Assembly: GCA_012026655.1 (NCBI GenBank)
Contig: JAAILG010001808.1
Span: 1-61,479, forward strand
Length of the DNA: 61,479 nucleotides
Direction: 5' to 3'
From: Hydrolagus affinis
Lineage: Eukaryota
In this document: positions 34,724 through 35,114 of the stretch, piece after piece
Numbering within the stretch: position 1 is the stretch's first letter
Layout of the letters: each line of letters starts with the position of its first letter
Position numbers and translations under genes: made by a program
Notes under the pieces: generated by a model
Told to the model about the DNA's origin: nothing
Database searches by the model: none
Seen by the model: the letters and a program-made list of their open reading frames with translations, nothing else

Positions 34724-34746
34724 CTATATATATATATAATATATAT

Positions 34747-34958
34747 AACACAAAATACTACAGTTGCTGGGAATCTGAAACAAAAACAAAAGTTGCTGGG
34801 GAAACTCAGCAGGTCAAACAGCATCCATGGAGAAAGGAAAAAGAGTCAACGTTTTGGGTCTACAACCCTTCGTCAGGACCTGAAACATTGACTCTTTTTC
34901 CTTTCTCCATGGATGCTGTTTGACCTGCTGAGTTTCCCCAGCAACTTTTGTTTTTGTT
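34747..34958. mobile_element. Penelope-type terminal repeat with inverted partial copy, inserted in (TA)n
   Basis: Arms 34779-34860 and 34877-34958 (82 bp each, 3 mismatches), 16-nt spacer, TA runs on both sides; homologous to the single copy at 27055. Confidence 0.8.
34844..34880 (-). ncRNA. Minimal type I hammerhead ribozyme motif (probably inactivated, G12>A)
   Basis: Minus strand: GGUC CUGACGA A GGGU-UGUAG-ACCC aAAA CGUU GACU. Stem I is GGUC/GACU, stem II GGGU/ACCC, and stem III is the palindromic ACGU type seen in Penelope ribozymes. Confidence 0.65.
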
Positions 34959-35114
34959 ATATATATATCTATAATGTTGGTTGAGAATCCAATATTCAAT
35001 CTAATATTCTAACATCATTCACTGTCTAGGATCACACATGAAGAGTGGTTGTTGGGGTGAGAAACAGAGGTTGGCCAAAGACTGTAAAAGCATGTCGCAG
35101 CAGGAGAACGGAGA

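Follow-up and report, generated by a model that had tools for sequence, protein, structure and literature searches.

Insertions of Penelope-like elements (PLEs) have been described as carrying an adjacent inverted 5′-truncated copy, a tail of 30–40 bp at one end, and a bias towards (TA)n targets (PMC8557442), and the same insertion anatomy is given as guidance for repeat curation (PMC8969392). Inverted pLTRs with an optional tail of 31 bp, head-to-head inverted junctions, and joints formed at microhomologies are likewise reported (PMC3846280), and the Penelope element of Drosophila is described with a 34–37 bp repeat and with variable inverted repeats (PMC2377424). In the in vitro work on PLE integration, both strands of AT-rich DNA are cut and extended, two start sites of reverse transcription delimit the tail, and ribozyme cleavage is not needed for insertion (PMC11167929). 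With regard to the ribozyme, thousands of solitary hammerhead motifs are reported from vertebrate genomes (PMC4209133), hammerheads use the N1 of a guanine as base, and their cleavage as dimers has been reviewed (both PMC6765202). Animal non-LTR retrozymes have already been reported in one chondrichthyan genome (bioRxiv 10.64898/2026.07.22.740005).

The feature studied here is a short palindromic element within a contig of Hydrolagus affinis, which was analysed over its whole length of 61,479 nt (hereafter the window). As in the EN+ PLE units described for Penelope/Poseidon, Neptune and Naiad (PMC8557442) and for Pen2a_Av (PMC3846280), a truncated copy and a head-to-head inverted copy occur together with a one-sided tail and a likely target of (TA)n or otherwise AT-rich sequence. 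In comparison to the units in these descriptions, the palindrome is extremely short (~210 nt), it includes neither an ORF nor a direct pLTR, and its tail, with 28–30 nt, equals the lower limit of the published 30–40 nt or falls slightly short of it. The EN+ PLE traits present are the adjacent head-to-head inverted 5′-truncated copy, the one-sided tail, and the hammerhead in the terminal repeat. Judged by this anatomy, the feature behaves like an EN+ PLE insertion and would be explained by what is known of PLEs. The Penelope-type origin that had been proposed for it fits the inverted truncated copy, the one-sided tail and the AT-rich target, and PLE membership rests on such anatomy, since neither an RT nor a GIY-YIG sequence could be connected with the repeat family. 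On these anatomical grounds the element is very probably a PLE-type stub. Our fuller reading, which we hold with rather more confidence than doubt, is that of a short and decayed insertion of a high-copy hammerhead repeat, composed of two head-to-head truncated copies, likely of a PLE pLTR, with a ribozyme predicted to be inactive.

With the minimal hammerheads (min-HHRs) of metazoan PLE pLTRs, as presented in PMC4209133, the motif of the palindrome shares a helix I of 4 bp, CUGAnGA, an unpaired base between positions 9 and 10.1, the G10.1–C11.1 pair, the palindromic positions 15.2–16.2, and the lack of loop 3. Pairs of min-HHRs on opposite strands, 100–700 bp apart, are also described there and may be likened to the palindrome. 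The differences are that the palindromic copy has A12, that its second arm includes no more than half of the motif, and that its helix II is of 5 bp with a U-G pair, compared to 7–8 bp in the Schistosoma families treated in the same source. PAc, the Poseidon of Anolis, resembles the palindrome in its two fixed 3′ ends split by the tail, in the AT-rich target and in the uncut RNA, but in PAc the hammerhead overlaps the ORF start and reverse transcription starts 111–118 nt into the ORF, according to the account in PMC11167929, whereas no ORF is linked to the family of the palindrome. The animal non-LTR retrozymes, in turn, are likewise non-coding and PLE-derived and carry a type I hammerhead; as characterized in 10.64898/2026.07.22.740005, they form head-to-tail tandems with at least two complete ribozymes, whereas the palindrome is a single inverted pair with none complete. 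Identity with a non-LTR retrozyme was accordingly rejected: the locus includes no tandem array, and one of its hammerhead motifs is mutated and the other is a half.

Architecture of the palindromic insertion

The two inverted arms, 34779–34860 and 34877–34958, are 82 nt long each and 96% complementary, and they are separated by a spacer of 16 nt. The longest perfect stem comprises 71 bp, as against 8–13 bp obtained with 20 shuffles. The arms are mismatched at three positions (34850/34887, 34855/34882 and 34856/34881), all of which fall in two CpG positions, and none of the 78 columns outside CpG is mismatched; the arm alignment therefore agrees with the original prediction of 82-bp arms with three differences, all of CpG type.

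The element is asymmetric in layout, with a tail, a long copy, the junction, and a shorter inverted copy. The tail (34751–34778, minus strand) is family sequence found at the left end only, which aligns with the second copy of the repeat in the window and not with the right arm, and its length is 28 nt, or 30 nt if the start is placed at 34749. It is adjoined by the main truncated copy (34779–34876, minus strand), in which the left arm and the 16-nt loop are joined and which stops just before the hammerhead core. The right arm (34877–34958, plus strand) is an inverted, shorter and tail-less second copy that retains the 3′ half of the hammerhead only. At the junction, the trinucleotide GAC at 34877–34879 pairs with GTC at 34858–34860 (stem II) and is likely a microhomology. 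The palindromic element is in sum a truncated copy plus a head-to-head inverted copy, with a one-sided tail and an AT-rich target.

The left TA-rich run (34725–34748) reads (TA)7-A-(TA)4-A and is, by its sequence, the likely target site; the right TA-rich run extends over 34958–34975. Uninterrupted TA is located at 34725–34738 (followed by 34740–34747) on the left and at 34958–34967 on the right, in accordance with the TA runs expected at both ends, and the two flanks account for two of the five runs of (TA)5 or more within the window. The best match between the left and right flanks is 11 nt of pure TA, and within TA a target-site duplication cannot be told apart.

Two further observations concern the arms. 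A segment of the tail (34753–34771) is a direct repeat of the arm end at 34782–34800 (19 nt, 84% identical, 29 nt away), as if both 3′ ends sat before two similar motifs. In addition, decay has affected three of the four CpGs of the arms, compared to none of the 78 other columns, and the best joint probability of this CpG pattern was 0.005, 0.024 and 0.11 at CpG rate ratios of 10, 20 and 50, respectively. Possible causes of such CpG-skewed decay are that deamination was faster close to an extruded loop, or that the outer stem underwent gene conversion.

Hammerhead motif and predicted folding

A minimal type I hammerhead is located on the minus strand at 34844–34880, with a stem I of 4 bp, the CUGAnGA core, an extra A, a stem II of 5 bp, and no stem III loop. 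In minus-strand numbering, C3–A9 occupy 34876–34870, the extra A is at 34869, and the G10.1–C11.1 pair is at 34868/34856, with A13–A15.1, the palindromic positions 15.2–16.2, U16.1 and U17 making up the remainder; the predicted cut falls at 34848/34847. The short helix I, the extra base after A9, the G10.1–C11.1 pair and the palindromic 15.2–16.2 are traits of min-HHRs. Both the numbering and the folding bear out a minimal hammerhead on this strand, with a correction to stem II, which had been drawn as 4 bp with a 5-nt loop and which folds as 5 bp, including a U-G pair, with a 3-nt loop.

G12 is the general base of the hammerhead. In the palindromic copy, the conserved core (CUGAnGA / GAAA / UH) is incomplete due to an A at position 12 (34855, minus strand), where the family majority has G, a transition of CpG type; the mirror of position 12 in the right arm keeps the family letter, and the family letters give an intact core. 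Because G12 is the family majority and is kept by the right arm, the A12 of the palindromic copy is read as a CpG-type loss.

When the isolated motif of 39 nt was folded with its genomic letters, stem I formed with a probability of 0.87–0.99 and stem II with a probability of 0.79–1.0. The stem probabilities dropped to 0.11–0.16 when the motif was folded together with the left copy only, and to ≤0.005 upon addition of 10 nt of the right arm. The whole element is predicted to fold as an 82-bp hairpin of −153 kcal/mol, a duplex which agrees with the ~80 bp of dsRNA foreseen in case of transcription. Since stem I has a probability of 0.000 in this whole-element fold and enforcing the hammerhead fold costs 20 kcal/mol, the inverted arm is predicted to disable the hammerhead whatever position 12 holds, and by this folding the ribozyme of the palindromic copy was likely dead on arrival. 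The earlier explanation, that the copy was disabled by decay of G12, stands in so far as A12 fits CpG decay, but is not supported as the cause of inactivity, as the inverted arm alone takes the predicted probability of stem I from 0.87–0.99 to 0.000.

Rfam searches returned no hammerhead at E≤10 in positions 33500–36500 and none at the gathering score across the window, and a strict scan of the window for the core motif gave a single match, at 54201, which is unrelated. The hairpin was also considered as a miRNA precursor, and this was rejected, as the scores were those of a generic hairpin and below threshold (best 52.5 bits against an Rfam gathering threshold of 90).

Repeat family in public sequencing runs

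Six of 24 listed public runs were aligned, namely X1, X5 and X6 (DNA) and X21 (RNA) at 80% likeness to the 571-nt stretch 34530–35100, and X1 and X6 again, together with X7 and X8, to a stretch across the inversion junction. Aligned contigs numbered 9,183 of 7,077,490 in X1, 10,552 of 9,293,879 in X5, and 11,229 of 13,493,220 in X6, nearly all of them on the element. The hammerhead-bearing repeat is a family of very high copy, and the family that had been postulated for this genome is thus represented by thousands of contigs per DNA run. It may be either a non-autonomous family of its own or the truncated ends left by an autonomous PLE. G12 accounted for a share of 0.81, 0.80 and 0.77 of the family depth in the three DNA runs and for 0.64 in the RNA reads, so that the ancestral G12, originally restored from comparison of the arms, is the letter of 77–81% of the depth in DNA.

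From the RNA run (X21; organism B, single-cell polyA, ~27% read), 4,093 of 13,869,776 reads fell on the element, in both directions. None fell on the unique flanks, and no pile-up of ends was seen, in a library of a type that cannot show the cut site. These reads refer to the family level and do not bear on whether the palindromic copy is expressed; for the palindromic locus in organism B, the left flank is uncovered in X6.

Loose ends of the family cluster at 34772–34778, with 33–68 records per listed row, and by this clustering the right arm ends where family copies end in general. At the other side, the family depth drops steeply behind 34876. Most copies go on with AACTG behind this position and a minority with GACTG, the loose ends behind 34876 and behind 34879 numbering 133 and 40 in X1, 112 and 38 in X6, 31 and 10 in X7, and 39 and 5 in X8, respectively. 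Loose-end agreement was 0.41–0.53 behind 34876 and 0.37–0.42 before 34772–34778; the former is little above the latter, which weakly hints that most family copies end a few bases before the core. Some family copies run past the core, as seen in a faint longer consensus that is matched by the second copy in the window.

Motif scans for relatives with flanks gave no loci in metagenome contigs and none in viral contigs. No account of this hammerhead repeat family or of its junction register was found in the literature covered, which excluded Repbase and supplements; the family may be listed in the min-HHR alignments of PMC4209133 or in the tables of 10.64898/2026.07.22.740005.

Inversion junctions of other family copies

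Among the 15 joints listed from a total of 55, 12 link left-arm to right-arm sequence and represent other inverted copies. Their left ends range from 34788 to 34878, with three of the 12 at 34876–34878, and most joints have <30 letters on one side, which makes them unreliable in repeats. The breakpoints of the other inverted copies are widely spread.

Gap-free contigs across the junction of the palindrome were found, among the eight records listed per run, twice in X1, three times in X6, twice in X8 and not in X7, and four further listed contigs cross it with 1–4 gaps. None of the gap-free records has 31 letters on both sides (25 on the right being possible), and some of them may be alleles or the ortholog. 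Records 6 and 7 of X1 and record 24 of X6 reach 31 letters on each side with 5–16 gaps, and these are nearby but different junctions. Sequence depth to the right of the junction was 0.034% (X1), 0.079% (X6), 0.036% (X8) and 0% (X7) of that to the left. The junction register of the palindrome probably recurs in other contigs but is rare, at <0.1% of the family depth.

The junction is located 29 nt from the predicted cut, on its 5′ side, and both arms cross the cut site, which indicates that the templates were uncut. The claim that the element turns exactly at a hammerhead ribozyme was overstated in that the turn is not at the cleavage site, being 29 nt off, and in that the breakpoints of other inverted copies are spread. 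The finer statement, that the inversion junction at 34876/34877 abuts the CUGA core, holds for a donor of the majority type, but not for a GAC donor, with which a 3-nt overlap arises at 34877–34879: only with the GAC-type (minority) donor is this GAC common to both copies, and it then gives a 3-nt GAC/GTC match.

Formation of the insertion

If the element is a PLE-type stub, two-sided priming is the somewhat likelier route of its formation, rather than fold-back. According to this proposal, cleavage of an AT-rich run on both strands by the PLE endonuclease would have left two free 3′ ends, each of which would have primed one cDNA. The first cDNA would have begun at the outer start site, which would give the tail, and run to just before the hammerhead core, and the second, starting from the inner site, would have come to a halt in stem II. 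The ends of both cDNAs may then have annealed via GAC/GTC, followed by fill-in. CpG decay would have come later, with the loss of three of the four arm CpGs, G12 among them, and a read-through transcript would form the 82-bp hairpin, removing stems I and II.

What speaks against two separate primings is that the arms are the same in each of the 78 columns outside CpG, the family-minority letters at 34817 and 34818 included. This identity fits at least as well with a single cDNA that folds back at GAC/GTC by self-priming, copies its own first 82 nt and is resolved at the tail boundary, and self-priming of this kind was put forward in PMC3846280 to account for inverted PLE junctions; the geometry, with a 3-nt stem and a 16-nt loop, is also suitable. 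Copying would nevertheless have to halt exactly at the family-wide end at 34772–34778, for which two start sites of the kind described in PMC11167929 account directly, and self-priming on sense RNA, as outlined in PMC3846280, yields the opposite orientation. Fold-back is for these reasons possible but rather unlikely.

The other explanations considered are weaker. That the palindrome itself is mobile, as a small amplified family of fold-back elements (similar to MITEs or SINEs) whose junction is fixed and whose target is TA, would agree with TA on both sides and with the gap-free junction contigs of X1, X6 and X8 (and none in X7) among the records listed, and yet the depth to the right of the junction is <0.1% of that to the left (depth being no measure of copy number, and palindromes being possibly under-assembled), the ends are asymmetric due to the tail, the breakpoints vary among other inverted copies, and the copy at 27063–27188 is not palindromic, which together render this improbable. 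A MITE or DNA transposon proper, with symmetric and fixed terminal inverted repeats, was rejected in view of the one-sided tail, the junction depth of <0.1% and the variable breakpoints. The turn does fall inside the hammerhead motif, as would be expected if it had taken place at an RNA end produced by self-cleavage; both arms, however, cross the cut at 34848/34847, with the junction 29 nt away, no cluster at the cut site occurs among the loose-end rows listed, and cleavage was dispensable for insertion in the in vitro system of PMC11167929, so that we regard this origin as most unlikely. Equally little credence is given to an assembly artefact. No listed contig covers the whole element or matches the junction of the window exactly (2–7 other letters), and an N gap is present elsewhere in the window; on the other hand, there are three CpG-type differences between the arms, similar central junctions occur in three runs, and in organism A both flank junctions are found in the inverted orientation, in one run for the left junction and in two for the right. 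The contigs of organism A in question connect the left flank with the tail (record 1 of X1) and the right arm with the right flank (record 8 of X1 and record 16 of X5), and these outer junctions argue against mis-assembly, for which a check of raw reads had originally been suggested. No empty allele was seen among the rows listed.

In a wider and unlikely reading, the hammerhead would shape the insertions as a structure rather than by cutting: most cDNAs of the family would end a few bases before the core, its helices would supply the GAC/GTC match by which two cDNAs are joined, and the junction would recur independently. The cDNA end would then correspond to the RNA 5′ end or to a stall of the RT at helix I. 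If true, thousands of stubs would form a natural record of how PLE integration finishes and of what the hammerhead is for. The single palindromic locus, as a dead stub, matters little. The family of thousands bears on how PLEs build inverted, tailed insertions and on what minimal hammerheads do, since the places where its copies end and turn can be counted across the genome. Perfect hairpins of ~80 bp across the genome could, if transcribed, feed dsRNA pathways.

Second copy in the window and neighbouring features

A second copy of the hammerhead repeat is present at 27063–27188 (minus strand), with 82% identity over 126 nt. This copy is non-inverted and more decayed, it carries the tail, and its core is mutated. 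As it has no TA run at its ends, targeting of (TA)n is not supported as a trait of the family.

None of the 209 window frames of ≥62 aa was matched by Pfam, and they revealed neither a host gene nor a PLE ORF. The translations of the frames at 37297–37851 and 47646–48029 resemble LINE-2 proteins at their C-terminal end (no Pfam match). A many-copy block of ~100–110 nt ending in (TAA)n was found at 22732–22844, 34435–34527, 35104–35225, 44490–44602, 49447–49526, 55767–55873 and other positions, and two of its copies bracket the palindrome. Heads resembling tRNA were located at 49252–49316 and 21363–21434, with Rfam scores of 39.7 and 34.1 bits, respectively, and the tRNA-like heads and the (TAA)n block together likely represent a SINE derived from tRNA, with a tail of L2 type. 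The window includes 354 N, with an assembly gap at ~8800–9170, and a tandem repeat with a 21-nt unit in 3.3 copies is located at 45189–45257.
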